Shown piece by piece: positions 9,867-54,089 of a stretch of 64,000 bases of DNA (the first letter of the stretch is position 1; the number at the start of each line of letters is the position of its first letter). This DNA comes from a virus. The notes beneath the pieces were generated by a model that was not told the origin of the DNA, made no database searches, and was given only the letters and a program-made list of their open reading frames with translations. The stretch spans positions 3,008 to 67,007 of IMG/VR virus record IMGVR_UViG_3300006925_000014; one strand, written 5' to 3'. The translations under genes and the position numbers were made by a program.

Positions 9867-9873
9867 ATTCTGG

Positions 9874-9881
9874 TATAAATA
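9874..9881 (+). promoter_or_regulatory. T4-type late promoter
   Basis: Intergenic TATAAATA upstream of the gp9-like gene. Confidence 0.75.
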
Positions 9882-9909
9882 TTATTAATTCATTTACTGA
9901 GTAGGTAAC

Positions 9910-10983
9910 ATGGCAAGACAAAACATTTCAATTGGTGCAGCAGCAAATGATGGCACAGGTGATACCCTTAGAGGTGCTGGCACTAAGATTAATGATAACT
10001 TTACAGAACTTTATTCTGCACTAGGTGGTGATAGCACATCACTTGGTAATAATATTAGTTTTGATAGCACTGGTATCATTTTTTCCAATGACTCTAACTT
10101 CAGTGTTACTTTAGGACTGCTAGACTCAGCTCTTATGAGTAATAAGGTTGTCAGTCTTCCTAACAAGACTGGTGAGCTTGTCGTCATTGAAGGTACAGCA
10201 GGAAGTAGAAACGTTAATCTTGCAGACTCTCCTACTGGTGTTGCTGCAACACTATACTTTGGTAACTCCTTTGCTAATGCATCTGTACTTCCTTCTTCTA
10301 CTGTATATAATGGTATGTTTGGGTTCTTAGAAGACGAAGAAAGGGCTGTGGCAGCAGGTGGCACAAATGGTTGGGTAAGATTAATTGATAGTGACTTGTT
10401 ATCTACAGGAAACTATAGCATCACAACTAATGCTACTTTTAGTGGCATTACGTTAAATGATCCTAAGATGAAGACTATTATTCGTGACTCTGGTGATCAG
10501 CCAATTGTTCAATTGTCTACAGATGGAACACCTACTAATTATCTTAAAATTACTTCTACAGATTCCTCTCCAACTATTGGAGCAGAGGGTGGTACAGATG
10601 TAGGTGTAAATATTAAACCAAAGAATGATGGTGTTATTTGTTTTGACGGTAGGATTAAATACAACGTACAAAACATGACAGATGTTGATGACGTATTTGA
10701 TTCAGGTGCAGCATTATATATTATTAATGCAGCAACGTCTCATACTTTCAACTTCTTTGGCACAGGTTTTGAGGTTGGTGAAGTAAAGAAGGTTATTAAT
10801 AAGAGTGGTGCAAGTACAGTAACTATTCAGTGGCCTAACGGTCTTACATACTTTGCACATCCAGACGGTGGTTCCGGTTTTGTAGAAATGACAGGTAACG
10901 GATACTTTGAAACAATTTGGGACGGGGACCAATGGCATGTTAGCAAAGATTCGGACAAACTTGGTAAATTTGGAATTGGTTAA
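9910..10983 (+). CDS. gp9: Baseplate tail-fibre connector, gp9/gp10-like
   Basis: N-terminal IG..ANDGTGDTLR.AG.KINDNF.ELY motif of the gp9/gp10 family. Confidence 0.75.
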   Translation: MARQNISIGAAANDGTGDTLRGAGTKINDNFTELYSALGGDSTSLGNNISFDSTGIIFSNDSNFSVTLGLLDSALMSNKVVSLPNKTGELVVIEGTAGSRNVNLADSPTGVAATLYFGNSFANASVLPSSTVYNGMFGFLEDEERAVAAGGTNGWVRLIDSDLLSTGNYSITTNATFSGITLNDPKMKTIIRDSGDQPIVQLSTDGTPTNYLKITSTDSSPTIGAEGGTDVGVNIKPKNDGVICFDGRIKYNVQNMTDVDDVFDSGAALYIINAATSHTFNFFGTGFEVGEVKKVINKSGASTVTIQWPNGLTYFAHPDGGSGFVEMTGNGYFETIWDGDQWHVSKDSDKLGKFGIG

Positions 10984-11001
10984 AATAGGTAGTAAAAACA
11001 C

Positions 11002-12378
11002 ATGGTAGCAATCGTAACCGATGATTTAAAAAAAGTAGTTGTATCAGAATTAATTGCTGATGTAGGTGATTCTGCAAGCAACTATTATATTGGTATTGGT
11101 AAATCTGATCAATGGAATATTACCGATACTCCACCAACACCAGTTCCGACAGATAGAGAAGAAAGAGACTTTAGGGCAAATCTTCAGTCTGTCATTAAGA
11201 CTACTGATGTTAGCTATGTTGCTCCTAGATACAATTGGGCTTCTGGTACAACCTATCAGGCATATAGTGACGAAAAGACTGCAACTGGTACAAGTGCAAA
11301 TGGTCAGTACTATGTAATGACTGCATCAAACAGAGTTTACATTTGTTTGCAACAAGGTAAAGATGCCACTGGCACTCCACAGCCTTCTAGTGTTGACCCG
11401 GACACAACACTTACTACTACTAACCCCGGTGTTGCTACAGCAGATGGATATATCTGGAAGTATCTTTACACACAGTCTGCTTTGAGACTAAGTAAGTTTG
11501 GTTCTGCTAACTTTATTCCAGTAGAATTTGTTGGTAGTGGAGTGCTTACCTCTATTGAGACAGCACAGCAAAATGTTCAGAATGCTGCTATTCCGGGTTC
11601 TATTATTGGATACAAAGTGGTCTCTCCCGGCTCTGGATATGCTGTTAGTGATACTGTAACTATTCAGGGTAACGGTAGTTTTGCTAGAGCTAAGTTAACG
11701 GCTGATCCTGTATCTGGTGTTATCAGAAAAGTAGAGATTGATGACTCTACGGCAATTCCAGTTGGTTCAGGATATGACTTTGCTAATGTTAAAATCAATA
11801 CCTCTACAGGTACAGGTGCTGTAATTAGACCTGTTATCTCTAAGAAGGGTATTGGTGCTGATGCTAGAGAAGACCTTAGATCAAGGTCACTTATGTTTAA
11901 TGCAAAGATTGTAGGTGAAGCGGGTGATGGTGATTTTATTATTAACAATGATTTCAGACAAGTAGGTCTGATTAGAAACCCAACTATCCCTACAAGTCGG
12001 TCTGCTGCGGACTCAGACTTTACTGCAACTACTGGTTCTGCACTTAGAATTCTTACATTAGACTCTGCTATTACAACAGGTATTGAGGCAGATGATCTTC
12101 TGGTAGGTGATAATACAGGTGCAAAGGTATATGTAGATAAAGTTAATGGTCCACAAATTTCCTATCACCAAAACGACAACACAGGTTACTTAGCATTTAG
12201 CTCTGCTGATGTTGCAATCAATGACTCATTAGGAACCAGAACTGCTGCTGCTTTTGTATCAGACTCTAATGGTGAAGTCAATCCTTTCAGTGGAGAGGTG
12301 CTATATATTGAGAACAGAGCCGCAATCCTTCGCAGTAGTGTTGGTACTGAAGATATTAAAATGATTGTGCAGTTTTAA
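11002..12378 (+). CDS. gp8: Baseplate wedge subunit gp8
   Basis: YIGIGK..W, PRYNW.SG, VYICL, DGYIWKYLY, NDFRQVGLIRNP and SGEVLYIENR motifs. Confidence 0.9.
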   Translation: MVAIVTDDLKKVVVSELIADVGDSASNYYIGIGKSDQWNITDTPPTPVPTDREERDFRANLQSVIKTTDVSYVAPRYNWASGTTYQAYSDEKTATGTSANGQYYVMTASNRVYICLQQGKDATGTPQPSSVDPDTTLTTTNPGVATADGYIWKYLYTQSALRLSKFGSANFIPVEFVGSGVLTSIETAQQNVQNAAIPGSIIGYKVVSPGSGYAVSDTVTIQGNGSFARAKLTADPVSGVIRKVEIDDSTAIPVGSGYDFANVKINTSTGTGAVIRPVISKKGIGADAREDLRSRSLMFNAKIVGEAGDGDFIINNDFRQVGLIRNPTIPTSRSAADSDFTATTGSALRILTLDSAITTGIEADDLLVGDNTGAKVYVDKVNGPQISYHQNDNTGYLAFSSADVAINDSLGTRTAAAFVSDSNGEVNPFSGEVLYIENRAAILRSSVGTEDIKMIVQF

Positions 12379-17657: not shown

Positions 17658-17867
17658 ATGCAGAATGATTATGTACCAGTTGAGGGCAGTCCCGGATTAG
17701 TCAGAGATAAGGCTACCGGGGCTATTATAAATACAGATAAATCAGGTCTACAGGCTGCAAAAGCAAGAAAGCTTGCTCAAAAGCAGGACAGAGAAAGATT
17801 AGATAAAATAGAAAATGATGTAAGTGAAATTAAAAAATTTTTGGAGAAACTGGTAAATGACAACTGA
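17658..17867 (+). CDS. Small conserved phage protein with coiled-coil C-terminus
   Basis: VEG.PGLVRD..TGAIIN motif, usually found after DUF4815 genes. Confidence 0.7.
   Translation: MQNDYVPVEGSPGLVRDKATGAIINTDKSGLQAAKARKLAQKQDRERLDKIENDVSEIKKFLEKLVNDN
17726..17733 (+). promoter_or_regulatory. Possible late promoter
   Basis: TATAAATA inside the small ORF, about 125 nt upstream of the 17857 gene. Confidence 0.5.
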
Positions 17868-19127: not shown

Positions 19128-19604
19128 ATGCAAACACAGAATGAAATTTTGAGAAAAAAGTATTTTAATCCTGTTTGGGTGAACTTTGACAAAACAACAT
19201 TAGAAGTCCGTGAAAAAACAAAAATTGGTAAAATTAAAAAAGAGCAGTGCCTAGTTGTTACTAAGTGGGATGATGAAGATGAAACAAAAATAAACCCACT
19301 TTTTGAAACAATTACCAACATCTATTCTATAGAAGAAATTGATAACTTTACAGAAAAATTTAATGATGAAGTGAAAGAAAATATCAAAAAAGAATCGGCA
19401 CAAAGAGAAGAAGAAGAAGAGGTAAAAAGACTAAGAGAATTATTTAATGTAAAACTAGATATTTTTAATATTTCATCTATTAATGAATCTAGTGATAAAG
19501 AAATGAAATCTTTGATTAGAAAATCAAAGTCTAATATTGAAGCAATTGCTTTTGCTGTAATTTTAATGATGAAAGAAATGAAAAATAAAGATGAAGACAA
19601 TTGA
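19128..19604 (+). CDS. Hypothetical protein (AT-rich cassette)
   Basis: AGGAG RBS; 158-aa K/E-rich ORF. Confidence 0.65.
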   Translation: MQTQNEILRKKYFNPVWVNFDKTTLEVREKTKIGKIKKEQCLVVTKWDDEDETKINPLFETITNIYSIEEIDNFTEKFNDEVKENIKKESAQREEEEEVKRLRELFNVKLDIFNISSINESSDKEMKSLIRKSKSNIEAIAFAVILMMKEMKNKDEDN

Positions 19605-20205
19605 AGTAAAAAATGATTATGTACTTTCACTATTAGATTCAATAGAAAATTATTTATTGGATGTGGATTGTGATTCTTTAGAGATTGATCAGGGAGAATT
19701 CTTAAATCTAAAAGATGATAAATTATCTGACAAATATTTAAAACAAATTATGAATGCTGGAAAGAGTCATGAGGGATATCCTTTATTTCAGCCAAAATAT
19801 GTTTTACCAGTAGAATTATTTAAATACATTCATAAGCACACTACTGAGTTAACTGAATATATGTTCTCTGAAAGAGTGTGTTTAGATTTGCTGTATCCAC
19901 CAAAATCATATTGTAGTTGGCATAATAATGCCAATGCACCGGGTAATGCAATAATGTTTTCTTGGTCTAAAACAGGAGAAGGTGATTTTAGATATTGGGA
20001 TAATGATAAAAAAGAAGTAATCTATATTCCAGATAAAAAAGGATGGAATGTAAAGTTTTTTAATTTTGGTGATTATAATCAACCCGAAAAGTTAACGTAT
20101 CATGCATCTTCTAATGAGTGTTTAAGATATAGTATGGGATTCAATTTTATAACAGAAAAGCAAGTATTAGATGAAACAGTAGAATTGTTAACTAACGATG
20201 AATAA
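19591..20205 (+). CDS. Putative cupin/2OG-Fe(II) oxygenase-like protein
   Basis: YPP..YCSWHNNAN, G.G.FRY, YHA and R.S.G pattern consistent with a double-stranded beta-helix fold. Confidence 0.5.
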   Translation: MKTIEVKNDYVLSLLDSIENYLLDVDCDSLEIDQGEFLNLKDDKLSDKYLKQIMNAGKSHEGYPLFQPKYVLPVELFKYIHKHTTELTEYMFSERVCLDLLYPPKSYCSWHNNANAPGNAIMFSWSKTGEGDFRYWDNDKKEVIYIPDKKGWNVKFFNFGDYNQPEKLTYHASSNECLRYSMGFNFITEKQVLDETVELLTNDE

Positions 20206-20908
20206 TGGTATCATTGTAGTAGCAACCAATAAGGCATATTATTACAATGCAGCTTGTCAGTTAGGAGAGTCTATTAAAGAATACACTCCTGATTTTAACA
20301 TTACGTTGTATACCCAAGAAGACTTTGTAAATAATAATTGTAAAATTTTTGATAATGTAATTACCGATGTTCCAATTCATGAAAACTCTAAAGTGAATCA
20401 AAGAACTAAAATGTGGGCAATGGCAAACTCACCATATGAAACTACACTATACCTTGATGCGGACATGGAAATTGTACATGAAGATTTTTCTACAGTATTT
20501 GAACAGATTAAAGACAATGATTTACTTTGGACTAAAATAACCGAAGATAGAAAATATGCTTTTAATTTTATTAAATCTGGAAATGTTACCTTTGAATATC
20601 ATGGTGGATTATGTCTTTATAAGTCATCAGCAAAAGATTTCATGATGGATTGGTATAATCTTTGGGTAAAACAATCAACCCAAAAATGGTGGCCTGATCC
20701 AACTAGGTATCCATATAATTTAAGAGATTTCGATCAATTTGGTTTGTGGTGGCTGCTAAATAAAGAGAGTGATAAATATAAATATTTGAAGCATGACTTT
20801 TTTGAAGACGATACAAGATGGAATGCGGTGATACAATATAATGAAAAATTGGGGCATGGAAAAATGCCTATTATACGTCATTATTCAGGTTGTCACATTA
20901 CTAATTAA
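20198..20908 (+). CDS. Glycosyltransferase, GT-A fold (GT8-like nucleotide-diphospho-sugar transferase)
   Basis: K..AM..SPYETTLYLDAD (DxD motif), HGG..Y, DQF.LW and II.HY motifs. Confidence 0.8.
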   Translation: MNNGIIVVATNKAYYYNAACQLGESIKEYTPDFNITLYTQEDFVNNNCKIFDNVITDVPIHENSKVNQRTKMWAMANSPYETTLYLDADMEIVHEDFSTVFEQIKDNDLLWTKITEDRKYAFNFIKSGNVTFEYHGGLCLYKSSAKDFMMDWYNLWVKQSTQKWWPDPTRYPYNLRDFDQFGLWWLLNKESDKYKYLKHDFFEDDTRWNAVIQYNEKLGHGKMPIIRHYSGCHITN

Positions 20909-24542: not shown

Positions 24543-24878
24543 ATGGCTGACCTAAACGTATTTCGTTCAATTACACATTCTGTCCAAGACAGTTCTACAG
24601 TTGCTTACACAGCACCTGATGGGTACACAGGTATTGTTCTGTCTACTCAGGTGGCAAATGCATCTGATAGCACACATTGGCTTACTTTAACTGTTCAGGA
24701 TTCGGCATCTGCTCCTGCAAATGAGTTGCTATCTCAATTTGATATTCCGGGAAGAGATGCAGCATCTGCAACTTCTGGTAAAACAGTTGTGACCACAGGA
24801 CAAATTTTAAAAATGCGTTCTTCTGGACAAAATAAACTTAAAGCTACTATCGGAATTTTGGAGTCACTAAATGGCTAA
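24543..24878 (+). CDS. Small structural protein
   Basis: YTAP.GYTGIVL..QVAN and C-terminal ILESLN, typical of the partner gene of the preceding fibre. Confidence 0.65.
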   Translation: MADLNVFRSITHSVQDSSTVAYTAPDGYTGIVLSTQVANASDSTHWLTLTVQDSASAPANELLSQFDIPGRDAASATSGKTVVTTGQILKMRSSGQNKLKATIGILESLNG

Positions 24879-27618
24879 CTTACTCAGTAGAAAAGTAAAA
24901 AGTGCAGAGATACCTGATACTTTTTTCAGACTAGAAGATGTAGAACCTAGTCTTGGTGTTCCTAATGATAGTAACTCTATCGTGGTATCTGTTACTAATG
25001 GTGACAGAACTTTTTATAAGATAGACAGTGGATTTTCCTTTGATAATGATTCTGGTGCAAGAAGAATCAGTATTGACCTATCTCAGTTTGGTATTACAAA
25101 TTTAAGCAATGTAGATGACTCTGATGGTCTTGGGAATGTTATTGATGGTGGCAAGCTTTTAGTTTACAGTGCATCTAGAAATGCGTTTGTTCCAAGTGTA
25201 GGTGGTGTATCTCTTGACTCTAATGATGCTGTTACTCTTAACGGTGAAGGTCCATTATTCTACCTTGATGCAAGAAATCACAATTACAATCAGACAGTAT
25301 TTGACTCTAACTTTGGTGTATTATCAGGTAGGGATTCTGTTAGGTTCACAAGCAATGAGCTTTTTATATCTGGAAAAACAGAGTTAACTAGACTTCAAGT
25401 AAGTGACTCGGCAAAAATTCAAGGATTATTAACGGTTTTTGGTAATATTGAAACTGATGAAACAATAAAAACCAATAGACTTTCTGTAGATAGTTCTGCT
25501 CTCGTTAATGGCAACTTAACAGCAATAACACTTAGTGGGAATGGTGCTGGTCTGACAAATCTAACGGCAGATAGTGCCGTATTTGCAGATTTAGCTGCTG
25601 ATTTAGAAAGTGCTGCCTTTGATGCATTATTTGCAGATAAGACTACTGGTGAGTTAACTGAAGGTTCTAATCTCTACTATACTGAGGCTAGAGCAGATTC
25701 AAATATCACTAGATATGTTACAGTAAATAATTTACGGTTTGCTGATACTCGTAAAGCAACCTTTGGTGATGATAGTGACCTGAAGATTTACCATGATGGT
25801 TCTTCCAATGTCTATCAGGGTTCTTCTCATGCATTCCGCAATGCTCATGGCAATGATGTTATTACAGTTGACAGTGACCATGCAGTATTGAAGTATGATG
25901 GGAATGCTAAACTTACTGTAGTTGACTCTGGCATTGAAGTTACCGGGAATATTTCTGGTACTAACTTAACCTTAACTGGTGACCTGACAATTACAGGTAC
26001 AACTACTACGGTTAATACTACAACACTTCAGGTATCTGACCCACTCATTCACTTAGCAGTAGGTAATGAATCTGCTGATGTTGTGGATATTGGTTTCTTT
26101 GGACACTATTCCAATGATGCTGGTGTGACTAGACAGCATACAGGTTTCTTTAGAGATGCTAACAATGGTGAGTATTTCCTTTTTGGTACATATGTTAGTG
26201 CTGGTTTAGATTCTGAAATTCCTGACACAACTATAGACAGAACAGACCCTACGTTTGGTTTAGCTGAACTTAATCTGAAATCTATTAAAGCAGATTCTGC
26301 TACAATTAGTGGTCCTATCAAGTTTTCTAATGTATATGCTACTGAAGGCGCATTACCAAGTGCAGCAACCTATCATGGTATGTTTGCCCATGTACATGCT
26401 ACAGGTAAAGGTTACTTTGCTCATGGTGGTCAGTGGCACAAGCTTCTGGATGAAACCTCTAGTACAACAGACGACCTGACAGAAGGCTCCACTAATCAGT
26501 ACTTCACTACAGCTAGAGCAAGAGCATCCCTTGGTGTGGAAAATACTAGCGGAACTGGAAACGGTTTTGGTAGTCTTGCTTATGATAGTACTAGTGGTGC
26601 ATATACATTAACACAAGTAGACTCTGATGATATTCTTACAGTATATTCTGCTGGTAACAATATCACAATTTCTCCTACTGGTGTTATCACTGCATCCGGT
26701 GCACCACAGGCAGACAATGCAGCATTACTGGATAGTTTAGATGCTATTCAATTCCTGAGAAGTGATGTTGATGATTTCTATAAAGCAAACAATACTCTGA
26801 CATTCCTGACGGGTTCTAAGTTAGCATTTGGTGATTCTACTGCACCAACATACTTTACTCATACAGGTAGTGGGCTTAGATTTGTTGGCAACCCAATTCA
26901 AAACCTGAATGTTACATTGTTTGATAGTCTTGTATCTGGACAGTTCCTAAGAAGTGATGCAACTTCTAATGTCACATCTGGTTTGGTCTTTAATGACAAT
27001 GTTCAATTGAATTTTGGTACGGATTCTGATGCGCAAATGTACCATAGTGGTTCAGCATTTGTCACCAGAAACAATACTGGTGATTATCATGTTCAGAGTC
27101 AAGGTTTCTTAATTGAGAATTCTACTGGCACTGAAATTATGATTGACGCTGAAGCTAACTCTTTTGTTAAACTATACTATGATAATGCAGTAAAGTTTAG
27201 TACACTGTCAGATGGTGCTAGGATTTCTGGGACTCTTGAAATTACGAATGGGATTAGTCATGTAAATGGAAGTAACACTACAGAATTCCGTCCTTCTGGT
27301 GTTCCAATTACCACAAATGCCATCACAGTAGTTGATACTTATGATGCTTCTAGATTACCAACTACAATTAAATATGATGTTCACATGCATGATGTAAGCA
27401 CAACACCTGATGAAACACAAGTCAGTACTGTATTGGTAGCCTTTAATGGTGAATCTGATGTAGGCTTTACTGAATTCGGTGTGGTTCATACTGGTGACAG
27501 TGATATGGGATTCTTGACAGCAGATGTCAATCCAAGTGGAGAAGTAAGACTGTTATTTGAAAGACGTAATGGTAGAGGTACAATTGAAGTTAAACCTGCA
27601 AGAACAATTATTAAATAG
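24871..27618 (+). CDS. Tail fibre protein
   Basis: Modular fibre motifs: T..LTEGSNLYYT, FGDDSDLKIYHDG, GTTTTVNTT.L.V.DPLI, DIGFFGHY. Confidence 0.7.
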   Translation: MANLLSRKVKSAEIPDTFFRLEDVEPSLGVPNDSNSIVVSVTNGDRTFYKIDSGFSFDNDSGARRISIDLSQFGITNLSNVDDSDGLGNVIDGGKLLVYSASRNAFVPSVGGVSLDSNDAVTLNGEGPLFYLDARNHNYNQTVFDSNFGVLSGRDSVRFTSNELFISGKTELTRLQVSDSAKIQGLLTVFGNIETDETIKTNRLSVDSSALVNGNLTAITLSGNGAGLTNLTADSAVFADLAADLESAAFDALFADKTTGELTEGSNLYYTEARADSNITRYVTVNNLRFADTRKATFGDDSDLKIYHDGSSNVYQGSSHAFRNAHGNDVITVDSDHAVLKYDGNAKLTVVDSGIEVTGNISGTNLTLTGDLTITGTTTTVNTTTLQVSDPLIHLAVGNESADVVDIGFFGHYSNDAGVTRQHTGFFRDANNGEYFLFGTYVSAGLDSEIPDTTIDRTDPTFGLAELNLKSIKADSATISGPIKFSNVYATEGALPSAATYHGMFAHVHATGKGYFAHGGQWHKLLDETSSTTDDLTEGSTNQYFTTARARASLGVENTSGTGNGFGSLAYDSTSGAYTLTQVDSDDILTVYSAGNNITISPTGVITASGAPQADNAALLDSLDAIQFLRSDVDDFYKANNTLTFLTGSKLAFGDSTAPTYFTHTGSGLRFVGNPIQNLNVTLFDSLVSGQFLRSDATSNVTSGLVFNDNVQLNFGTDSDAQMYHSGSAFVTRNNTGDYHVQSQGFLIENSTGTEIMIDAEANSFVKLYYDNAVKFSTLSDGARISGTLEITNGISHVNGSNTTEFRPSGVPITTNAITVVDTYDASRLPTTIKYDVHMHDVSTTPDETQVSTVLVAFNGESDVGFTEFGVVHTGDSDMGFLTADVNPSGEVRLLFERRNGRGTIEVKPARTIIK

Positions 27619-27630
27619 GATATAAGTTAA

Positions 27631-30600
27631 ATGGCTGATTCTGCTAAAGATTTTGTAGTCAAACAGAACCTACGGGTTACAGGTAATATCGTCTCTGCTG
27701 GCGCAGGGTCGGTATTTACTGGTGATGGTGCACAACTGGACAATGTTGATGCAGTCACTCTTGGTGGGGAAAGTGGTGGCTTCTACAGGGATGCAACCAA
27801 CTTAAATGCTGGCACAATCAGTAATGACAGACTTCCTGCTACTATCACTAAAAATCTTACCGGTAACGTAACAGGTAATGTTGATGCTACAAGCGGTTCT
27901 GGTACGGTAGATGCAGACTCAGGTAGGTTTACAACTATCTCTGGTACTACAGCCTCGTTTAATACCTATGTTGGTGTATATGGTAACTTTGATACGTTTG
28001 ATGAGGTTTTTGATAGTTCCTTTACCAGAGACACTTTCAAGGCAAATGTATTTGATCCAGCATTTGATAGTTCCTTTACCAGAGACACTTTCAAGGCAAA
28101 TGTATTTGATCCAGCATTTGATAGCTCGTTAAGCAGAAAGTCTGCTGATGATATTGCTGATGGTCAGACAAATAAATTCTATACTACTGCTAGATTTGAT
28201 TCTGATTTTGGGTCAAAGAGTACAACAGAACTCAGCGAAGGTGGTAACCTTTACTACACTGAAGCAAGAGTAGACTCTGACATTACTGGAACTGTCACTA
28301 AAACATTTGTAGACGCATTAAATATTAATGCAGATCAAGTTGGCGGTGTAGAAGCAACGTCTTTTGTTAGAAGTGATCAGGACGATACAATTGGTGCTAA
28401 CCTCCAATTTACTGATGGTAATGAACTGAGACTTGGTACTGGTAACGATACAATTATCAAACACACTGGTACTCAAACAACAATAAACCATACTGGTACT
28501 GGTAATCTGGTCTTCCAAGCAGATGAGCAAACTAGATTAACTATTGAAGATGATAAGACAACTGTTACAGGAAAACTTCACACTGATAGTGTAACGTCTA
28601 CTGCTATAATTGAAGGCTTTGATGTTCGTGTAGATAACATGCTTGATATCTATGAATCTGCTGGTGGTAGAATTGCTGGTCATCTTGAAGGCACTGCTGC
28701 TGAAGGGTTGCAAATTCACTATTATTCTCAGATTGCTACAGAAGGTCTGAAAGTTATTGGTCATGATAGTGGTGAACTTGTTGGTACTACACAGATGCGA
28801 TTCACCTTTAGTGACGGTATTTCTTTTGAAAACCAAAGACTAAAGTTAGTATCAGACCCTGTAAGCAATCAAGATGTTGCTACAAAGGCATATGTAGATA
28901 ATACCTCTCAAGGTCTTGTAGTTAAAGATGGTGTAAAAGCAGCATCTACTGGTGATCTTAGTAGTGTTGCTGGTATTGGCACAGTAACATATAATAATAC
29001 TGCTGGTCCTGACTCCGGTGTAGGTTCTGGATTTAGCTTTACAGGTGTACTTAACGCACTTGATGGCCACACCTTTAGCTCTAATGATAGAGTGCTTATT
29101 AAAGACCAAACAAACACCTTTGAGAATGGTATTTACAGATGGGTAAACAATACTACCTTGACAAGAACTACGGATGCTGACCAAGATAGTGAACTTGGTG
29201 GGGGAGTATTCGTATTTGTTGAAAACGGTACTACTAACGCAAGTAACGGCTATGTTACTTCTCACTCTGGTCTTACTAATGTAGGCACAGATGATATTCT
29301 ATGGACACAATTCTCCGGTGCTGGTTTTATTGAAGCTGGTGACGCTCTGGTAAAAAATGGTAACGTTATTGACGTAAACCTTTCTGATGGTGCAGGTGGT
29401 ACATCTGGTCTGAAGGTTGAAACTGACCAACTGAAGATTAACTTAGGGGCAGGTGGTACTGGTTTAGAGATTTCCTCTAACGTTCTGCAAATTGCTGATG
29501 ATGGTGTTACTGCTTCAAAGATAAACTTTGGTTTGGGTGCAGGACAGATTAGTACTGCTGATCTTCCAGAAGACTCTGTATCGGGTAATACATACTTTAC
29601 CGTATCTAGAGCAAGAGCGGCTATTAATGCTGGTGCAGGTATTGGTTATGATTCTGTAAGTGGTGTAGTGTCTATTAATAATACCTCAAATGTAGGTGTA
29701 CTTGGTAGTTCAACTAGAATTCCAGTTATTACAGTTACAGCAGAAGGTTTAATTGATAGTATTGGAACAGCAGCAGTTGCTGGTGTAGATAGTGTAGCAT
29801 TTGATTCTAGCACTGGTGTTATTGAGTTAACACTTGGAGATGCTAGTGTAAAGACTGCACAAGTTGTTCTTGATGCATTCTCTACAGACAATCTTTCTGA
29901 AGGTAGCACAAAGCAATATTACTTAAAGTCTAGAGTAGATTCTGATATTGATCTAAGAGTTCCTACTATTATTGATAGTGATTATCTTGATGATTTTGTC
30001 AGACCTCTTTCTAGATTAGGATATGATTCTGGAACATTAGCTCCATTTGCTAGAGCAGCAATTAGTGTTGCGGGTGATGGTGTATCTTATGAACAGGGTA
30101 CAGGTGTAATCACAGTTGCCACAGTGACTAACTCTTTCCAAGTAACACAGGCTGGTCACGGGTTAAGAGAAGGTCATGCAGTCTATGAAGATGATGTTGC
30201 AGGATGGGTAAAAGCATTTGCCACAGATTCTGGTCATCAGCTTGCTACGCACGTTGTAGTAGATTTTGTAGACTCTGATACATTTGCAATTGCACAGAAT
30301 GGTATCTTTACAATTGGTGAAACTGGTTCTGTAAGTCCTGCTATTTCTCTGACAGCAGGTGAATACTACTACACAGGTAACGTAGATTCCGGTATCCCTG
30401 TCATTACACAGCCAGCAACATCTGTACAGCCTCTGTTCTATGCTCTGTCTTCTACACAAATGGAACTTAGTGTAGAGCATGCAATCAATGTATTCTCACC
30501 AGATGAGCCGTTGAATGTAAGCAGCACAGCAGGTAACTTTACTGTATCAGGTAATCTGAAAATAAGTGGATTAGGTGTTCCAAAAGTTGCTACAGTCAAT

Positions 30601-30912
30601 CCGGGTGGAACATATTACTTTGATAGTGGTAACGTAGCAAAGCTTACTATGTCTGCTGATGCAAGTATGCAGTTTGATAGTCCGGGTACTGTGTATGACG
30701 GGGCTGGATTTACTATCCTTGCCAAGAACACAGATGCATCTGCTCATAGACTGACACTGACCACTCCAAATGGTGTAACACTCCACACGGTAGGTGAAAA
30801 CAAAATGACTGTAAATGCTGGTAACATTGCAATTCTTAGTGGTGTTATTTACGGTGAGAAGGACATCTTGTTAACATCTACACAAATGGATAGCTCTATC
30901 ACAGGACAATAA
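27631..30912 (+). CDS. Tail fibre protein
   Basis: DVATKAYVD..QGL.VK..VKAAST, RVLIKDQT..ENGIY and QFSGAG modules; EG.NLYYT repeats. Confidence 0.7.
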   Translation: MADSAKDFVVKQNLRVTGNIVSAGAGSVFTGDGAQLDNVDAVTLGGESGGFYRDATNLNAGTISNDRLPATITKNLTGNVTGNVDATSGSGTVDADSGRFTTISGTTASFNTYVGVYGNFDTFDEVFDSSFTRDTFKANVFDPAFDSSFTRDTFKANVFDPAFDSSLSRKSADDIADGQTNKFYTTARFDSDFGSKSTTELSEGGNLYYTEARVDSDITGTVTKTFVDALNINADQVGGVEATSFVRSDQDDTIGANLQFTDGNELRLGTGNDTIIKHTGTQTTINHTGTGNLVFQADEQTRLTIEDDKTTVTGKLHTDSVTSTAIIEGFDVRVDNMLDIYESAGGRIAGHLEGTAAEGLQIHYYSQIATEGLKVIGHDSGELVGTTQMRFTFSDGISFENQRLKLVSDPVSNQDVATKAYVDNTSQGLVVKDGVKAASTGDLSSVAGIGTVTYNNTAGPDSGVGSGFSFTGVLNALDGHTFSSNDRVLIKDQTNTFENGIYRWVNNTTLTRTTDADQDSELGGGVFVFVENGTTNASNGYVTSHSGLTNVGTDDILWTQFSGAGFIEAGDALVKNGNVIDVNLSDGAGGTSGLKVETDQLKINLGAGGTGLEISSNVLQIADDGVTASKINFGLGAGQISTADLPEDSVSGNTYFTVSRARAAINAGAGIGYDSVSGVVSINNTSNVGVLGSSTRIPVITVTAEGLIDSIGTAAVAGVDSVAFDSSTGVIELTLGDASVKTAQVVLDAFSTDNLSEGSTKQYYLKSRVDSDIDLRVPTIIDSDYLDDFVRPLSRLGYDSGTLAPFARAAISVAGDGVSYEQGTGVITVATVTNSFQVTQAGHGLREGHAVYEDDVAGWVKAFATDSGHQLATHVVVDFVDSDTFAIAQNGIFTIGETGSVSPAISLTAGEYYYTGNVDSGIPVITQPATSVQPLFYALSSTQMELSVEHAINVFSPDEPLNVSSTAGNFTVSGNLKISGLGVPKVATVNPGGTYYFDSGNVAKLTMSADASMQFDSPGTVYDGAGFTILAKNTDASAHRLTLTTPNGVTLHTVGENKMTVNAGNIAILSGVIYGEKDILLTSTQMDSSITGQ
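28009..28124 (+). repeat. Exact in-frame 54-bp tandem duplication (2 copies plus 8 bp)
   Basis: tttgatagttcctttaccagagacactttcaaggcaaatgtatttgatccagca at 28009 and 28063; encodes FDSSFTRDTFKANVFDPA. Confidence 0.95.
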
Positions 30913-35512: not shown

Positions 35513-38500
35513 ATGGCATTACAACTAAGACGTGGATTAGACACAGATAGAATTAGAATTAAGTTTGCTCCCGGTGAACTTGTCTATGCTACTGACACTA
35601 AAAAATTATATGTTGGTGATGGGACCACACTTGGTGGTAATGAAGTTTCTTTGAATGATAGTGATATTACTAATGTTCTTGCTGCATCACAAGCTCCTGT
35701 TATTCAGGCTATTGTAACTAAAGAATATGTAGATAACTTAAACATTAATGCAGTAGAATTAGATGGTTATGATAGAGCCTATTATAGAAACTATGGCAAT
35801 CTGACAAATACTCCAACAATTTTGGATAGTGCAAATGTACAGTCTTTGGCACTATCTACAGTTGACACTGACTATACTCAAAGCATCATTGGTAATACAA
35901 GCATCGATGCGTTATCTGATGTAGATTTAACAGATATTGCTGTTGATAGAATCTTGAAATGGAATGGTAGTAAATTCGTTGCTGCTAGTGCTGCCTCTGG
36001 TGGTACTGGCATTCAACTTACTGATCTTTCTGTTATTGATTCATCTCAATATGGGGTCTTGACCTATAATACTTTGACAGGTGAATTTAATTTCCAGAGC
36101 ATCACAGACAGTGATATTCTTTCCTTGGTGGACAGTGCCTATGTACAGGCTAGACAAAGCACTTTTGATTCTAATGATGTTGCATCTATTGTAGACTCTG
36201 CTTATATTCAGGCTAGACAAATCAGACTTGACTCTGCTGAAGTAATAGACCTTATTGATTCTGCATATGTTCAGGCTAGACAGACTCTTAGTGGTGGTGG
36301 AATTGACTCTGCTGAAGTTGTCACTTTGATTGATAGTGACTATATTCAAGCTAGGGTAACACTTGATGGTGTAGGTATTGATTCTGCTACAGCAGCAAGT
36401 ATTGCAGATTTTAGAATTGCTGTTCTTGGGTTTGATTCACAAGAAGCATTAGAGATTGCTCAAGGTGCAATTGCTGCTACAGACACTCATGATAGTGCGT
36501 TGGTTCTGAGCCAAATTCTTGAGACAATTACCCCAACATATATTCAGTCCAGACAAACAACATATGATTTTGAGACTGACTATGCACCTTTAATTGATTC
36601 AGATTTTATTCAGTCTAGAAGACCAGCAGAAACTATTATCACAGTAGGTAACAATGGCTCTGTAGGATATACCTTTACAGGTGACGGGTTCCCTTCCACT
36701 TCTGGTGATAACCCTACTATCTACTTGCAGAGAGGTTTACAGTACAAATTTGAAGTATCTGCCAGTGGCCATCCTTTCTATATTAAGACTATCCAGTCTA
36801 CAGGGACCGGAAGCCAGTACACAAGCGGCGTAACAAACAATGGTACACAAAGCGGTACTATTTACTTTACAGTCCCTATGGATGCTCCTGAGAGACTGTA
36901 TTATAACTGTCAATACCACTCTTCAATGAATGGCACTTTTGTAATTAATACTACGAGTGGTGTTGACTCTGCTGCTGTTAGTGGTATTGTAGATAATTTG
37001 ACTTCATTAAATGTTCAGTCTATCATTGCGGATTCGGTTAGATTTACTGATACTGGCAAGGTTGTTTTTGGTACGGATGATGATTTACAGATTTATCATG
37101 ACGGTAGCAATAGCTATATTATTCATGATGGTGGTGGTGTATTACTCAATCAGACTGATGGTTTCTATGTAAGAGATGCAGCAGGAGTCAAGACAGGTTT
37201 TGTGTCTACTCCTAGTGGTGCTACTACTCTTTACTATGATAATAATGCAAAGGTGGCTACAGCAAGCACAGGAATTACTGTGACAGGCACAATGAGTGCT
37301 GACTCTGCTATTATTGGCGGCAATCGTGTACTGACAACAGCAGATGACACCCATGACTCTGCTGCTGTTGAAGGCCAAATTAATGCAACAGTTAATCAGT
37401 CTTTTATTAATCAGTTTGATACTCATGATTCTGCTGCTGTATTAGGTCAGATCAACGCAACAGTTACACAGTCGTTTATTAATCAGTTTGATACTCATGA
37501 TTCTGCTGCTGTGCTTGCACAAATTAATGCAAGAGTTACACAGTCGTTTATTAATACCTTTGACACTCATGATAGTTCTGCGGTTCAAGGTCAAATTGAT
37601 GCAACCATTGCTGCTACAGATACTCATGATTCGGCAGCAGTCCTTGGACAAATCACTGCCACAGTTGATGCAGCTTATGTACAGGCACGTCAAATAACAT
37701 ATGATTTCTTAGACAGTACAGAAGCTCTAAACTTAATTGATCAAACCTATGTACGAAATCAGATTGATCAAGCGTTTATTGATACGTTTGACACTCATGA
37801 TAGTGTTGCTATTCAGAACCAGATTACAACCACAGTCACAGAATCTTATGTAAAGAACTTTGCTGACTCTGCTCATGTTCGCTCTGCTTTGTCTAGTGGT
37901 ACTGGTGTTACATTTAATGGTAGCACTGGTGAAATTTCTATTGGACAAGATGTAGGAACATCTGATAATGTTAGTTTTGCTAATGTAAATATTTCAGGTG
38001 ATCTTAATGTTACTGGTACACAAACAACCGTAACTTCTGAAACTCTTGCTGTAACTGATCCACTTATTCGTTTGGCAGAAAGTAATGAGCAGACTGATGT
38101 TATTGATATTGGATTTATTGGTCATTACTATGGAGAAGGTTCCAGAAGACATACAGGTTTCTTTAGGGATGCAAGCAATAAAGAATATTATATTTTTAAT
38201 GGATTAATTGACTCGGCATTTGATTCTAGTCCACCAACAAACATTGTTGACAGAACAAAACCCGGATTTACTCTTGCTACTTTGAATACTGGTAGGATTG
38301 TAGGTGTATATGCAGGATTTGATTCTGATTTAGGAACAAAGACTACATCAGATTTAGATGAAGGCACTAATCTTTATTATACTAAAGTAAGGGTTGACTC
38401 TGACATTGCTCTTAAAGTGGATACTACCTTTGTTGACAACTTAGCAGTCAACTATTCTTCTCTGACTGGCACACCTGTATTTGGTTCTGGATTAACAGAC

Positions 38501-39859
38501 CAAAGTGGAACTATTATTATCGGCCCTGATCAAGTCAAGGCAACAATGATTGACTTTGGTGCAGGTGCTAATCAGGTCAGTACAGATGATGTTTTAGAAG
38601 GTTCTAGTAATCTTTATTACACTGATGCCAAAGTAGCAACCTATGTAGATGCTGCATATGTTCAGGGTAAGATTGACCAATCATTTATTGATACATTTGA
38701 TACCCATGACTCGGTTGCTGTTTTAGGTCAAATTAATGCAACTGTAAATCAGTCTTTCATTAATCAGTTTGATACTCATGACTCTACAGCAATTGCTAAT
38801 CAGGCAAGAGATGTAATTAACACAAATGTTACACAATCTTTCATAAACGCTCTTAATATTGATGCAGATACATTAGATGGTCAAGATGGCACATATTACT
38901 TAAACTACAATAACCTTACTAATGCACCTACTGTACTCGACTCTTTAAATGTAACGTCAATTATTAATGAAACAGACACTCATGATAGTGCTGCTGTTCA
39001 AGGTCAGATTGATGCTAACTTTGCTTCTGGATTTACAGTTGGTGGTGACCTTTCTGGAGGCATTCAATCTAAATTTGGCGGTTTTTACGCTCCTCAAAAT
39101 CCAGAAGGCACACATTTTAAAGGTCATGCATTTTTTAATGATATTGCCTATGCTAGACTAAGAGGTTCAACAATATCTGTTGATGTTGATGGTACTGCTA
39201 TGACAAGCACCACTAACATAGATAATATGTTGTCGCCTAATAATAATGTTTGGAATATGTCAACGTCTGGTGTGACAACTGTTACCATTACAATAACCAG
39301 TATTCCTTCACCCATCCAGTTCGGTTCTTATATGGGTGTAAATTTTATTAGTAAAAATTTTCGGGCAAAGGATATCACACTTGAATATTCCCAAGACAGC
39401 GGATTCAGTTGGTCAACTGCTGGAACCTTTACAGATCAAGGTGACGAGTTTGTGGTCTCTAGTTTCAACTCCGGTAATATAAATACAAATGCTCTCAGAT
39501 GGACTTTAGAAGATTTTAATGCTCCCCAAATGAGGATTAATGGGTTGTTTGCCTACGACTTCAATTCACCCGGAATGTCTGGATTGTATCTTCCGTTAGG
39601 TGGAGGAAATGTTTATGGAGATATCGGTGTAACTGGTGAAGTTTCTGCCACATCGTTCAGTGGTGATGGTTCTAGCCTTACTGGTATAGCAGGTGCTAAA
39701 GGTGGTAGTACAGACCAAGTATTCTATGAAAATGATCAAACCGTGACTGCAAACTATACCATCACCACTAACAAAAATGCAATGACTGCTGGACCTATTA
39801 CGATAGATGCCGGAGTCACCGTAACAATTCCAACTGGATCAGAGTGGAGTATTGTGTAA
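35513..39859 (+). CDS. Long fibre protein with internal repeats (possibly neck-attached)
   Basis: MALQLRRG..GELVY.TDTKKLYVGDG.T.GG N-terminus; GHPFYI..LYY.CQYHS.M.G cupredoxin-like module; C-terminal NAMTAGPITI..G.TVTIP.GSEWSIV. Confidence 0.75.
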   Translation: MALQLRRGLDTDRIRIKFAPGELVYATDTKKLYVGDGTTLGGNEVSLNDSDITNVLAASQAPVIQAIVTKEYVDNLNINAVELDGYDRAYYRNYGNLTNTPTILDSANVQSLALSTVDTDYTQSIIGNTSIDALSDVDLTDIAVDRILKWNGSKFVAASAASGGTGIQLTDLSVIDSSQYGVLTYNTLTGEFNFQSITDSDILSLVDSAYVQARQSTFDSNDVASIVDSAYIQARQIRLDSAEVIDLIDSAYVQARQTLSGGGIDSAEVVTLIDSDYIQARVTLDGVGIDSATAASIADFRIAVLGFDSQEALEIAQGAIAATDTHDSALVLSQILETITPTYIQSRQTTYDFETDYAPLIDSDFIQSRRPAETIITVGNNGSVGYTFTGDGFPSTSGDNPTIYLQRGLQYKFEVSASGHPFYIKTIQSTGTGSQYTSGVTNNGTQSGTIYFTVPMDAPERLYYNCQYHSSMNGTFVINTTSGVDSAAVSGIVDNLTSLNVQSIIADSVRFTDTGKVVFGTDDDLQIYHDGSNSYIIHDGGGVLLNQTDGFYVRDAAGVKTGFVSTPSGATTLYYDNNAKVATASTGITVTGTMSADSAIIGGNRVLTTADDTHDSAAVEGQINATVNQSFINQFDTHDSAAVLGQINATVTQSFINQFDTHDSAAVLAQINARVTQSFINTFDTHDSSAVQGQIDATIAATDTHDSAAVLGQITATVDAAYVQARQITYDFLDSTEALNLIDQTYVRNQIDQAFIDTFDTHDSVAIQNQITTTVTESYVKNFADSAHVRSALSSGTGVTFNGSTGEISIGQDVGTSDNVSFANVNISGDLNVTGTQTTVTSETLAVTDPLIRLAESNEQTDVIDIGFIGHYYGEGSRRHTGFFRDASNKEYYIFNGLIDSAFDSSPPTNIVDRTKPGFTLATLNTGRIVGVYAGFDSDLGTKTTSDLDEGTNLYYTKVRVDSDIALKVDTTFVDNLAVNYSSLTGTPVFGSGLTDQSGTIIIGPDQVKATMIDFGAGANQVSTDDVLEGSSNLYYTDAKVATYVDAAYVQGKIDQSFIDTFDTHDSVAVLGQINATVNQSFINQFDTHDSTAIANQARDVINTNVTQSFINALNIDADTLDGQDGTYYLNYNNLTNAPTVLDSLNVTSIINETDTHDSAAVQGQIDANFASGFTVGGDLSGGIQSKFGGFYAPQNPEGTHFKGHAFFNDIAYARLRGSTISVDVDGTAMTSTTNIDNMLSPNNNVWNMSTSGVTTVTITITSIPSPIQFGSYMGVNFISKNFRAKDITLEYSQDSGFSWSTAGTFTDQGDEFVVSSFNSGNINTNALRWTLEDFNAPQMRINGLFAYDFNSPGMSGLYLPLGGGNVYGDIGVTGEVSATSFSGDGSSLTGIAGAKGGSTDQVFYENDQTVTANYTITTNKNAMTAGPITIDAGVTVTIPTGSEWSIV
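36131..36355 (+). repeat. Coding repeats DS(A/D)Y(V/I)QAR, mostly 63-bp period
   Basis: Copies at 36131, 36194, 36257 and 36332. Confidence 0.85.
37346..37690 (+). repeat. Coding tandem repeat DTHDSAAVxxQINATVxQSFINQF, 72-bp period
   Basis: Units at 37346, 37418, 37490 and 37562, a shorter unit near 37619, and dispersed copies near 37790, 38700-38790 and 38975. Confidence 0.9.
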
Positions 39860-41455: not shown

Positions 41456-41456
41456 C

Positions 41457-43433: not shown

Positions 43434-43452
43434 TAAATATGTTACAAAGAAC

Positions 43453-50662: not shown

Positions 50663-50930
50663 AGAGTTTAGTCTCAACATCATTCCAAAAGGACACAAGA
50701 TGGTTAAGGTCTTGCAGTCCAAAGATGGTGAAGTCATGATTACTAAAAAAGATAATAAATTTAATATTATGTTTGATAATCAGACTGTAGACACAGAGGA
50801 CAATGAGCGGGATGCTATGAAGTCTGCCCGCAACTTTATTCAAATGATGAATAAGTCTAAAGGTTCTGGTGGAATGTCTACTAAAAATATTGGCGGTAAA
50901 AGAGCAGGTACAGGTGGATACTTCAAATGA
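50649..50930 (+). CDS. Prohead core/internal head protein (gp68 position)
   Basis: Synteny; MKTFKEF start resembles the T4 capsid-targeting sequence MKTYQEF. Confidence 0.5.
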   Translation: MKTFKEFSLNIIPKGHKMVKVLQSKDGEVMITKKDNKFNIMFDNQTVDTEDNERDAMKSARNFIQMMNKSKGSGGMSTKNIGGKRAGTGGYFK

Positions 50931-52748: not shown

Positions 52749-54089
52749 ATGCAAGCTCCTGTATCTTACGACAATCTCGTAAAAAAGTGGGCTCCAGTAC
52801 TGAATGAAGAAACTGCTGGACCTATTTCCGACCATTACCGTAAGCAAGTAACTGCTGCGATTCTGGAAAACCAAGAACGTGCTATGCGTGAAGAAGCTGC
52901 TCAGTCCTCTTTTGGTCAGCTTAACGAGTACGGCACTGATACCTCTAAGGTTGACAACTTTGATCCAGTATTGATTTCTCTGGTTCGTCGTGCTATGCCT
53001 AACCTGATCGCATATGATCTGTGTGGTGTACAGCCAATGACTGGTCCTACTGGTCTCATCTTTGCGATGAAGTCCAAGTACAAGACCACTAAGGGTGCTG
53101 TTACTGATTCTGATGAGGCTCTGTTCTCTGAAGCTCAGACTGGCTTCTCTGGTGACTCCGCATTCTCGCAAGGCACTGACCCATCCGGTCTTGGTGACTC
53201 TGCGTTTGCTGGTGACTCCGACATTGATAACAACCGTTCTACAGACATTTACGGTGAAGGTATCTCCACTGCTGATGCTGAAGCACTCGGTTCTACTGGT
53301 GCTGCTTTTGCAGAGATGGGTTTCACCATCGACAAGTCCACAGTAACTGCTAAGTCCCGTGCACTCAAAGCTGAGTACACAATGGAACTGGCACAAGACC
53401 TGAAAGCAATTCATGGTCTGGATGCTGAGACAGAACTCGCAAACATTCTGTCTGCTGAAATCCTTGCGGAAATTAACCGTGAAGTTATCCGTACCATTAA
53501 CTCCCAAGCTAAGACAGGTTGCCAGACAGTAACTGGTTCCACTTCTTCTAAGGGTATCTTTGACCTTCAGGTAGATGCTGATGGTCGTTGGTCCGTTGAA
53601 AAGTTCAAGGGTCTGATCTTCCAGCTTGAGCGTGAAGCAAACCAGATTGCTAAAGACACCAGACGTGGACGTGGTAACTTTGTTCTGTGTTCCTCTGATG
53701 TAGCATCCGCATTTGCTGCTGCTGGTTACCTTGACTACACCCCTGCACTTTCTAGCAACATGAATGTTGATGACACAGGCAACACTTTTGCTGGTGTACT
53801 TAACGGTAAGCACAGAGTGTACATTGACCCATATGCAACCAATGACTACATTACCACTGGTTACAAGGGTTCCAATGCATACGACGCTGGTGTATTCTAC
53901 TGCCCATACGTTCCATTAACAATGGTTCGTGCGATTGGTGAGAACACCTTCCAGCCAAAGATTGGTTTCAAGACTCGTTACGGCATGGTATCCAACCCAT
54001 TCGTTGGTGCTACACCTGCAAACGGTCTGGCTGCTGCTAAGTCTAACCAGTACTACAGAATCTTTAGGGTTGATAATATTCTGGCATAA
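52749..54089 (+). CDS. gp23: Major capsid protein
   Basis: GVQPMTGPTGLIFAM, SRALKAEYT.ELAQDLKAIHGLDAE and FQPKIGFKTRYG motifs. Confidence 0.99.
   Translation: MQAPVSYDNLVKKWAPVLNEETAGPISDHYRKQVTAAILENQERAMREEAAQSSFGQLNEYGTDTSKVDNFDPVLISLVRRAMPNLIAYDLCGVQPMTGPTGLIFAMKSKYKTTKGAVTDSDEALFSEAQTGFSGDSAFSQGTDPSGLGDSAFAGDSDIDNNRSTDIYGEGISTADAEALGSTGAAFAEMGFTIDKSTVTAKSRALKAEYTMELAQDLKAIHGLDAETELANILSAEILAEINREVIRTINSQAKTGCQTVTGSTSSKGIFDLQVDADGRWSVEKFKGLIFQLEREANQIAKDTRRGRGNFVLCSSDVASAFAAAGYLDYTPALSSNMNVDDTGNTFAGVLNGKHRVYIDPYATNDYITTGYKGSNAYDAGVFYCPYVPLTMVRAIGENTFQPKIGFKTRYGMVSNPFVGATPANGLAAAKSNQYYRIFRVDNILA

Follow-up and report, generated by a model that had tools for sequence, protein, structure and literature searches.

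Clustered Asp-Ser motifs in a capsid surface arm and a clade-specific D-S-[A/D] bias on outer virion proteins of marine T4-like phages: a possible serine-modification tag

The capsid gene and its four Asp-Ser sites

We analysed a 64-kb window (the whole stretch of DNA studied here) of the 67-kb viral contig IMGVR_UViG_3300006925_000014, which comes from an uncultured marine T4-like phage and carries the structural module of a T4-like myophage (GC 38.6%). Our subject is its major capsid protein, gp23, in which four Asp-Ser (DS) dipeptides lie close together in a predicted surface arm, and the wider use of the tripeptide D-S-[A/D] on the virion proteins of its clade. The capsid gene, its upstream neighbours, the arm and the four sites (named below by the position of the Asp) are as follows.

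48874-50412: portal, directly upstream of gp23
50927-51577: prohead protease, directly upstream of gp23
51590-52729: scaffold, directly upstream of gp23
52749..54089, + strand: gp23-type major capsid protein, 446 aa (PHROG 138, E 8e-161; Pfam Gp23 PF07068, E 1.7e-146)
53082..53276, + strand: predicted surface arm (residues 112-176), placed by the anchors FAMKSKY and AE.LG...FAEMGF on either side; its T4 counterparts are I-domain linkers 1 and 2 together with the I domain
53106..53114, + strand: D120-S121-D122, lineage-specific DS (DS in the same column in 6/120 relatives)
53154..53162, + strand: D136-S137-A138 inside TGFSGDS, clade-invariant DS (120/120 relatives)
53196..53204, + strand: D150-S151-A152, second GDSAF, variable DS (same column in 33/120 relatives)
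53214..53222, + strand: D156-S157-D158 inside DS-x-x-D-x-x-R, clade-invariant DS (120/120 relatives)

The identity of the protein is clear from several directions. Its Pfam PF07068 score is 488.9 bits against a cut-off of 24.4, and T4 gp23 chains are matched at E 1e-86 (HMMER). An AlphaFold2 model built from a diverse alignment reached a predicted local distance difference test score (pLDDT) of 87 and a predicted template modelling score of 0.85; a model from close relatives alone (pLDDT 44) was discarded in its favour. The retained model has an HK97-like fold, and its top Foldseek matches are T4 gp23 (8gmo, 9mkb, 6uzc and 5vf3; E 1e-36 to 2e-31).

The DS motifs begin at residues 120 (TDSD), 136 (GDSAF), 150 (GDSAF) and 156 (GDSD), cover nucleotides 53106-53219 and are the only ones in the 446 residues. 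A preliminary description of this DNA had confined all four to residues 120-157, and its coordinates and counts are exactly right. The two GDSAF copies are GGTGACTCCGCATTC and GGTGACTCTGCGTTT.

Judged as a single sequence, gp23 has four DS against 2.4 expected, and at least four occur in 20% of whole-protein shuffles (P 0.20); the zero count across the other 380 aa has a P of 0.24. At least four DS inside 38 residues arise in just 0.025% of whole-protein shuffles, and shuffling the D/S-rich arm by itself gives at least four in 3.9%. All four sites read DS[A/D] (P about 0.004 given the arm composition), and each is preceded by T or G, not by a hydrophobic residue. The single-sequence evidence for clustering is moderately significant. 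Under a chance reading, this would be an Asp/Ser-rich loop with a local GDSAF duplication, in which DS itself is unselected. The unexceptional total, the arm-composition shuffles and the restriction of the second GDSAF to the nearest relatives all suit that account; the last of these suggests that the second GDSAF is either a young lineage-specific copy or a convergence.

Where the four sites lie on the particle can be read from T4. The I domain and linkers of T4 gp23 (PDB 5VF3, 7VS5, 8GMO) belong to the same family, occupy the same place in the fold and form an exterior insertion at the HK97 E-loop. In the available text of PMC9546572, the T4 I domain protrudes on the capsid surface, and the linkers replace the HK97 E-loop, lie on neighbouring subunits, take part in extensive contacts within and between capsomers and provide the Soc binding sites. 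A loop of the T4 I domain at G201/A202 is described in the available part of PMC10229621 as flexible, solvent-exposed and external, and it accepts a nine-residue acidic insert. In a tentative HMMER alignment, G201/A202 falls on G147/L148 of the window protein, with D150 two to three residues further on. As a whole, the arm pairs with T4 gp23 beyond residue 135 and, further along, from 191 onward (HMMER), and this homology to the T4 I domain and linkers is what places it on the exterior.

The arm differs from its T4 counterpart in being far shorter and mostly predicted extended coil, with a DS pattern fixed across the clade and missing from T-even-type sequences. Between the anchors lie 73 residues (116-188), compared with about 113 in T4 (HMMER alignment), and the 66-residue arm, mostly extended coil in the model, does not match a full-size T4 I domain. 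Arm length ranges from 21 to 143 aa across 130 gp23 representatives, which makes this one a size variant within the family. Its pLDDT is 82-89, falling to 62 at residues 151-160, and the model has a short helix at 157-160. Fixed across the clade are E123, A124, E128, TGFSGDS, DP-x-GL and DS-x-x-D-x-x-R. Overall, the clade's arm is short and acidic, has many Ser and Gly residues and is predicted to be ordered. The preliminary description had called this segment a hypervariable exterior region: the exterior placement agrees with the T4 alignment, but with its fixed residues and confidently predicted conformation the arm is not simply hypervariable.

These features also fit a purely structural role. 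On that account nothing is attached to the DS sites, which instead would serve within a reduced I-domain arm as helix or turn caps, as contacts to neighbouring subunits or decoration proteins, or as divalent-cation ligands. The confident arm prediction, the short helix starting at residue 157 and the extensive contacts and Soc sites made by the T4 linkers all speak for it; T or G before the capsid sites, where hydrophobic residues might stand, speaks against it.

Conservation across gp23 relatives

We compared gp23 with two sets of relatives. The close set held the 120 best of 8000 scored gp23 relatives (73-99% identity; 121 sequences with the query). The diverse set was drawn from 50%-identity clusters: of their 150 best representatives, 130 of at least 390 aa were kept and 20 shorter ones dropped.

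Every one of the 121 close-set sequences has at least three DS within residues 111-176, and the mean per sequence is 3.29 in the arm versus 0.19 outside it. DS136 and DS156 are invariant inside an arm whose mean column conservation is 0.69, compared with 0.87 for the remaining gp23; near DS156, D160 is kept in 112/120 relatives and R163 in 103/120. Among the 130 diverse T4-type arms the maximum is two DS, reached by seven; 30 have a single DS and 93 lack it altogether, and the pooled count is 44 against 50.6 expected. Because of the complete invariance in the close set and the complete absence of comparable clusters from the diverse one, we regard DS clustering as a conserved property of one clade and not of T4-type loops generally.

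These comparisons confirm, at the level of sequence, that the cluster exceeds chance, mainly by its conservation, and they indicate selection. An unselected Asp/Ser-rich loop would have to keep two DS unchanged in 120/120 relatives amid moderate arm conservation, place DS[A/D] at all four sites, leave SD and other permutations without enrichment, and do so when 130 other arms, similarly D/S-rich, never reach three DS. We consider it very unlikely.

A D-S-[A/D] bias on outer virion proteins

Across the 63 open reading frames (ORFs) of the window, DS occurs 201 times against 120.8 expected (1.66-fold), and SD, DT and ES show no excess. The surplus is concentrated in baseplate-wedge and fibre proteins, and the tail tube has no DS. 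The richest genes are the following.

8904..12378, + strand: three outer baseplate-wedge proteins, DS-rich (observed/expected 10/2.7, 10/2.7 and 6/3.4)
24871..30912, + strand: two fibre or structural proteins, DS-rich (23/7.9 and 25/9.0)
35513..39859, + strand: 1448-aa fibre with repeats DTHDSAAVL and LIDSAYVQ (35 DS against 12.6 expected; 17 DSA, 6 DSD)

We extended the counts to nine further records, taking as structural those proteins with blastp matches to the window's structural ORFs. Four (G001, G039, G048 and G057), all IMG/VR contigs 115-155 kb long, carry the DS cluster in gp23, two lack the cluster (G062 and Phage C48C1), and three form an outgroup with gp23 59-65% identical to the query (G002, G003 and G004). 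In the tripeptide ranking DSD comes second (89 versus 22.3 expected) and DSA third (85 versus 22.6), behind GGG. With the three big fibre families set aside, the DSA and DSD ratios of observed to expected are 4.0 and 4.6 in the window, 4.1 and 2.0 in G039, 3.3 and 4.5 in G001, 4.4 and 5.6 in G057, and 3.1 and 2.3 in G048. On the same basis G062 and the outgroup range over 0-1.4 for DSA and 0.3-1.9 for DSD (G062 itself has 0 and 1.9), and C48C1, with all structural proteins and fibres included, has 1.2 and 2.8. The capsid cluster goes with a DS-based virion excess, as had been anticipated, in 5/5 genomes that have the cluster and in 0/5 that do not.

The excess follows the anatomy of the particle. 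On a T4-based division into outer proteins (capsid, sheath, neck, wedge periphery) and inner ones (tube, hub, gp6/gp25, portal, protease, scaffold), drawn up after the per-protein counts had been seen and hence not blind, DS[AD] in the clade numbers 143 against 24.1 expected in outer proteins (about 6-fold) and 4 against 12.2 in inner ones (0.33). The outgroup ratios are flat, at 0.89 outer and 0.99 inner. On 10-kb maps the excess is limited to the structural block. The preliminary description had spoken of a genome-wide DS enrichment, which is too broad: the excess is restricted to outer virion proteins.

The bias lies in what follows DS. In 18 conserved non-fibre families the total of DS is as expected (1.02), and the share reading DS[AD] is 104/234 in the clade versus 19/128 in the outgroup (Fisher p 5e-9, on counts that are not independent events, the compared genomes being related). 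Controls of order and chemistry give DAS 0.93, ADS 1.07, SDA 0.76, DDS 0.57, ESA 0.45, DTA 0.51 and DSE 0.29. Proteins of unrelated folds share the excess (capsid, wedge, neck and a giant DUF4815 protein). Orthologues of the wedge proteins are DS-enriched in the clade and not in the outgroup. In orthologue alignments some DS sites are conserved across the clade and many are lineage-specific, and at one and the same column the residue after DS can switch between A, D and S.

Three simpler sources were considered and set aside. A DNA-level cause, in which GAY-TCN creates a GANTC methylase or restriction site, finds GANTC at 185 versus 174 expected; serine inside DS uses TCN codons in 64% of cases compared with 68% overall in the window, and the other genomes are similar. 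Since serine codon usage is ordinary and GANTC is not enriched, the signal belongs to the protein and not the DNA. Composition is countered by SD, DT, ES and the D/S/A permutations, all flat or depleted, and fibre repeats as the only source by the 2- to 5.6-fold excess that persists when the three big fibre families are left out. Taken together, the sequence comparisons show the D-S-[A/D] bias to be protein-level, clade-specific and seated on outer virion proteins.

Much of this is awkward for a purely structural role, which at the scale of the virion would make DS[A/D] a shared building motif of the clade's fibrous and peripheral proteins. General structural propensities should show in the outgroup orthologues, yet those are flat. 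Ratios of 3.9 for DSD against 0.29 for DSE, and of 3.8 for DSA against 0.51 for DTA and 0.45 for ESA, are hard to obtain from capping preferences. The spread over unrelated folds with site turnover between orthologues and the depletion of inner virion proteins tell against it as well.

Alongside these counts, the structural proteins of G039 contain 94 DSA, and one of them, a 2855-aa fibre, has 116 DS against 31.5 expected. YIQ, LDS, IQA and LID are among the top tripeptides of those structural proteins, which points to a repeat of the LIDSAYIQA type.

A candidate glycosyltransferase and its partner

The preliminary description had supposed an enzyme able to reach the capsid sites and had mentioned a glycosyltransferase cassette, and a glycosyltransferase-like gene does stand in the structural module, within its tail-fibre part.

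17726..17733, + strand: TATAAATA, similar to a T4-type late promoter and followed by the gene run 17857-20908
19591..20205, + strand: partner gene of the GT8-like gene, its stop overlapped by the GT8-like ORF
20198..20908, + strand: candidate GT8-like (GT-A type) glycosyltransferase, tail-fibre module (DxD, glycogenin profile matches, Atlas cluster)

In the candidate, D87-x-D89 and the C-terminal H228 are invariant across 31 sequences. Searched against the PDB, its profile finds glycogenin chains as its 19 best matches (E 0.0011-0.023), over profile positions 4-101 in the N-terminal half. Its Atlas feature score is 0.97, and members of the Atlas cluster carry the nucleotide-sugar transferase families PF03407 (51%) or PF01501 (20%). 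The candidate resembles GT8 enzymes such as glycogenin in a predicted nucleotide-sugar-binding N-terminal half, in the DxD and in the His of its C-terminal part. Glycogenin itself attaches sugar to the side chain of a protein, its own Tyr.

The partner ORF encodes 204 aa with invariant H111, N112, N113, H171 and R179. Profile searches of the PDB and member-by-member Pfam scans gave zero matches for it; Atlas similarities below 0.9 to 2-oxoglutarate (2OG) and Asp/Asn-hydroxylase clusters are a lead only. The two genes end a stretch of three packed, non-structural-looking genes (19128-20908) in the tail-fibre module, the first of which is a Lys/Glu-rich 158-aa ORF.

Late expression is suggested by TATAAATA, which occurs 13 times in the window against 5.6 expected (0/100 shuffles reach 13), 12 of them on the + strand. 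We also note that the copies lie mostly just upstream of structural genes (for example at 6530, 9874, 22044, 44135, 46369, 50418 and 54109), and that a gp55-like late sigma factor is encoded at 58361-58951.

The candidate and its partner show identical presence and absence in nine genomes: both are present in G001, G039, G048, G057, G062 and C48C1 and absent from the outgroup G002-G004. Among 50,697 phage records, the GT8-like gene appears in C48C1 only. In IMG/VR at least 253 stretches bear the cassette. Of 30 IMG/VR records compared that carry the GT8-like gene, the 11 that also include gp23 have capsid proteins 69-77% identical to the query, with two to four arm DS in 10/11.

Other glycosyltransferases were considered as readers of the motif and rejected: the GT2 genes of G001, which lie among replication genes and methyltransferases, and a TET-associated glycosyltransferase (TAGT) beside a TET/JBP oxygenase. 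Their gene neighbours make both more likely to modify DNA. G001 (152 kb) encodes at C1:60001-100000 the TET/JBP oxygenase, the TAGT and a cytidylyltransferase, resembling a DNA-hypermodification cassette. In the same genome methyltransferases stand on either side of the two GT2 genes, and it encodes isocitrate lyase, alternative oxidase, cytochrome c, PsiE and a tryptophan halogenase as well.

Weighing a possible serine-modification tag

The reading we tentatively favour, as a real possibility that falls short of probable, is that D-S-[A/D] marks serines for modification on outer virion proteins, most plausibly glycosylation by the candidate GT8-like enzyme. By homology, residues 112-176 of gp23 form an outward-facing arm in place of the HK97 E-loop. 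Two arm DS have been fixed since the clade arose, and one to three more move between lineages. In the favoured scheme the tripeptide would be the recognition tag of an enzyme that modifies serine on outer virion proteins, for which the late-expressed GT8-like glycosyltransferase with its conserved partner in the tail-fibre module is the best candidate, and each capsid subunit of this phage would show up to four modified serines. A fuller version is unlikely as a whole: that the clade has its own sequon-directed serine modification, in which the late GT8-like transferase and its partner read D-S-[A/D], with several sites on each capsid subunit, and the whole virion surface is sugar-coated.

The tree of gp23 bears on whether the capsid sites and the wider motif belong together. 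A quick maximum-likelihood tree of 88 rows (5/93 inputs were dropped for a too-short ORF) groups the query clade in 52 rows with a Shimodaira-Hasegawa-like approximate likelihood ratio support of 99%, and 48/52 of these have at least two arm DS. C48C1 and G062 are nested in the clade on a long branch (0.5), sister to the G057 gp23, in a quick tree where long branches may be misplaced. As far as this tree goes, it shows the capsid cluster and the virion-wide excess to have been gained once and lost together at least once. Their joint gain and loss ties the capsid sites to the wider tag.

Several observations weigh against a serine-modification tag read by the GT8-like enzyme. C48C1 and G062 retain the GT8-like gene and its partner, with one DS in gp23 (C48C1) or none (G062), and their virion proteins have no DS excess (0.91 and 0.99). 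A replacement motif was looked for in the virion proteins of both and none was found. In C48C1 the genes lost with the motif are structural only, with no other enzyme gene among them. The GT8 assignment of ORF 20198-20908 is itself marginal by sequence: no window ORF passes a Pfam glycosyltransferase cut-off, the candidate's only match there is to GT21 (E 0.12), and its likeness to glycogenin is marginal too (E 1e-3), covering about 100 residues. The post hoc inner/outer division and the relatedness of the compared genomes count on the same side. So does the capsid itself. The invariant DS136 and DS156 are followed by A or D in merely 28% and 26% of relatives, the next residue varying among S, A, G, T, N and D. 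In G039, G001 and G048 (3/5 clade genomes) the capsid DS are never DS[A/D] and continue instead with S, G, T or N; four-of-four DS[A/D] is found only in the query and its three nearest cluster representatives. DS136 is moreover a small variant of a motif found throughout T4-type gp23, in which T/D, in most cases, and then G come after F/Y-S-G; the T-even-type representatives read EAFHP...[WF]SG in this place. Finally, many fibre DS sit in repeats, with a hydrophobic residue at -1 (1.6-fold) and V/I at +3/+4, and look like helix starts.

Since C48C1 and G062 keep the cassette without the tag, the cassette alone does not predict the tag. The preliminary description had asked whether DS clusters recur in this loop in relatives and accompany the glycosyltransferase cassette. 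The first part stands, in that DS are concentrated in the arm of close relatives and are not general in T4-type gp23 (0/130 with at least three), but the accompaniment is broken by these two genomes. In their branch the specificity of the enzyme may have changed, or the GT8-like protein may not be the reader.

A further alternative is a real tag with a different reader. The tag might serve another modification, for example phosphorylation or one made by a host enzyme, or it might be bound by a partner that is no enzyme, be it a surface ligand or a decoration protein. This account would explain how the C48C1/G062 branch lost motif excess and capsid cluster and kept the GT8-like cassette. It also gains from the further transferases of G001 (two GT2, several methyltransferases and the TET/TAGT cassette) and from the small share of the phage's genes, a minority, that the 67-kb contig covers. 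Among the compared genomes, however, only structural genes track the presence and absence of the motif. The GT2 enzymes and the TAGT of G001 more likely act on DNA, given their respective places among replication genes and beside the TET/JBP oxygenase, and a kinase-like Pfam match is absent among 62 window ORFs. We judge another reader to be quite improbable.

The purely structural role draws on the same observations. Invariant positions with a varying next residue, a DS inside a conserved FSG motif, fibre sites in repeats such as LIDSAYIQA and DTHDSAAVL with hydrophobic residues before them and V/I common after them, and a cassette that persists without the motif are all what it would lead one to expect. 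Set against the outgroup, the tripeptide chemistry and the inner proteins described above, it is the main rival, a strong one, possible as the sole explanation but somewhat unlikely.

The two views may apply to different sites. Other than the invariant pair, arm DS occupy at least nine alignment positions. A or D comes next in 99/154 of them, or in 50/105 once the DSDS column is left out, in which the invariant D156 comes next; for DS outside the arm in relatives the figure is 0/23. By these differing next-residue patterns the invariant pair behaves structurally and the extra arm DS show the behaviour of the virion-wide tag. Supporting the structure of the arm is probably an additional, or the sole, role of the two invariant DS. 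The earlier suggestion that the motifs were gained where an enzyme could reach them needs correcting: DS136 and DS156 are fixed clade-wide and are not recent gains, and at DS136 the conserved FSG-x-G is present in variant form.

Other genes in the window

The gp5-like baseplate hub region (1232-5645) is a series of separate ORFs.

1232-1780: OB domain ORF
1791-2165: weak lysozyme-like match
2165-3412: CHAP domain protein
3412-4122: Amidase_2-like protein
4122-5645: gp5 C-terminal-like protein

A putative adhesin-like run with few or no DS lies at 40335-44094.

40335-41054: LamG/concanavalin-like ORF
41457-43433: glycine-rich-domain ORF, source of the GGG excess
43465-44094: C1q-domain ORF

The giant DUF4815 protein (12394-17655; 1753 aa, PHROG 358, 1154 bits) is conserved in both clade and outgroup and contains the Arg-rich RRQRLRRRRGRDITPRRRRRRARF. 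A homing-endonuclease-like ORF with three NUMOD3 motifs (57040-57717) is placed between the genes for UvsW helicase and the gp55 late sigma factor. Beside replication and recombination genes, 62234-63337 encodes a Bmp/PnrA-like ABC-transporter substrate-binding protein (Pfam E 2e-53), which may be an auxiliary uptake gene.

Discussion

Two known systems come closest to a serine tag on phage particles. In the available text of PMC12619734, which discusses Freeman et al. 2023, mycobacteriophage capsid and tail proteins are decorated with glycans by phage-encoded glycosyltransferases in the cytoplasm; the capsid and tail-tube subunits there carry their glycans at the C-terminus, and that text does not describe a short sequon. 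The candidate sites in the window differ in being internal (120-157 of 446) and present on many outer proteins, with no DS in the tail tube, and they are predicted from sequence only. We know of no modification of T4 gp23 at the I-domain or linker site.

The second system is the general O-glycosylation of Bacteroidota, which uses the motif D-(S/T)-(A/L/V/I/M/T) with an Asp that is essential before the modified residue. By the available part of the review that describes it (PMC12871550), it is the only bacterial O-glycosylation with a defined motif; it is periplasmic, acts on non-cytoplasmic substrates, takes Thr as well as Ser, prefers a hydrophobic residue at +1 and transfers a lipid-linked glycan. 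The candidate tag resembles it in comprising three residues, with Asp before Ser, and in being enriched in the putative substrate class. DSA fits the Bacteroidota motif; DSD is equally enriched here, DTA/DTD is depleted (0.5; DTA 0.51), and a hydrophobic residue at +1 is not favoured (DSL 0.74, DSI 0.72; DSL/DSI/DSV 0.7-1.1), the favour going to Asp. Tailed-phage virion proteins, for their part, assemble in the cytoplasm. Neither the mycobacteriophage nor the Bacteroidota system matches in detail.

Among the papers listed on phage virion and capsid glycosylation, no report of a modified gp23 in T4-type or marine phages came up. Should the fuller version, with a modification system of the clade's own, be true, it would give phage O-glycosylation its first defined sequon, and T4-type or marine phages their first case. 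Even if the motif is structural, D-S-[A/D] is a useful marker of outward-facing virion surfaces. As a modification tag, it would supply a simple rule for predicting modified virion proteins from metagenomes. It would also mean that abundant ocean phages make their own covering of sugar, extending over capsid, neck, baseplate and fibres. Such a covering would bear on how they recognise hosts, how stable the particles are and how readily they stick to marine polymers, and on rates of grazing or decay.

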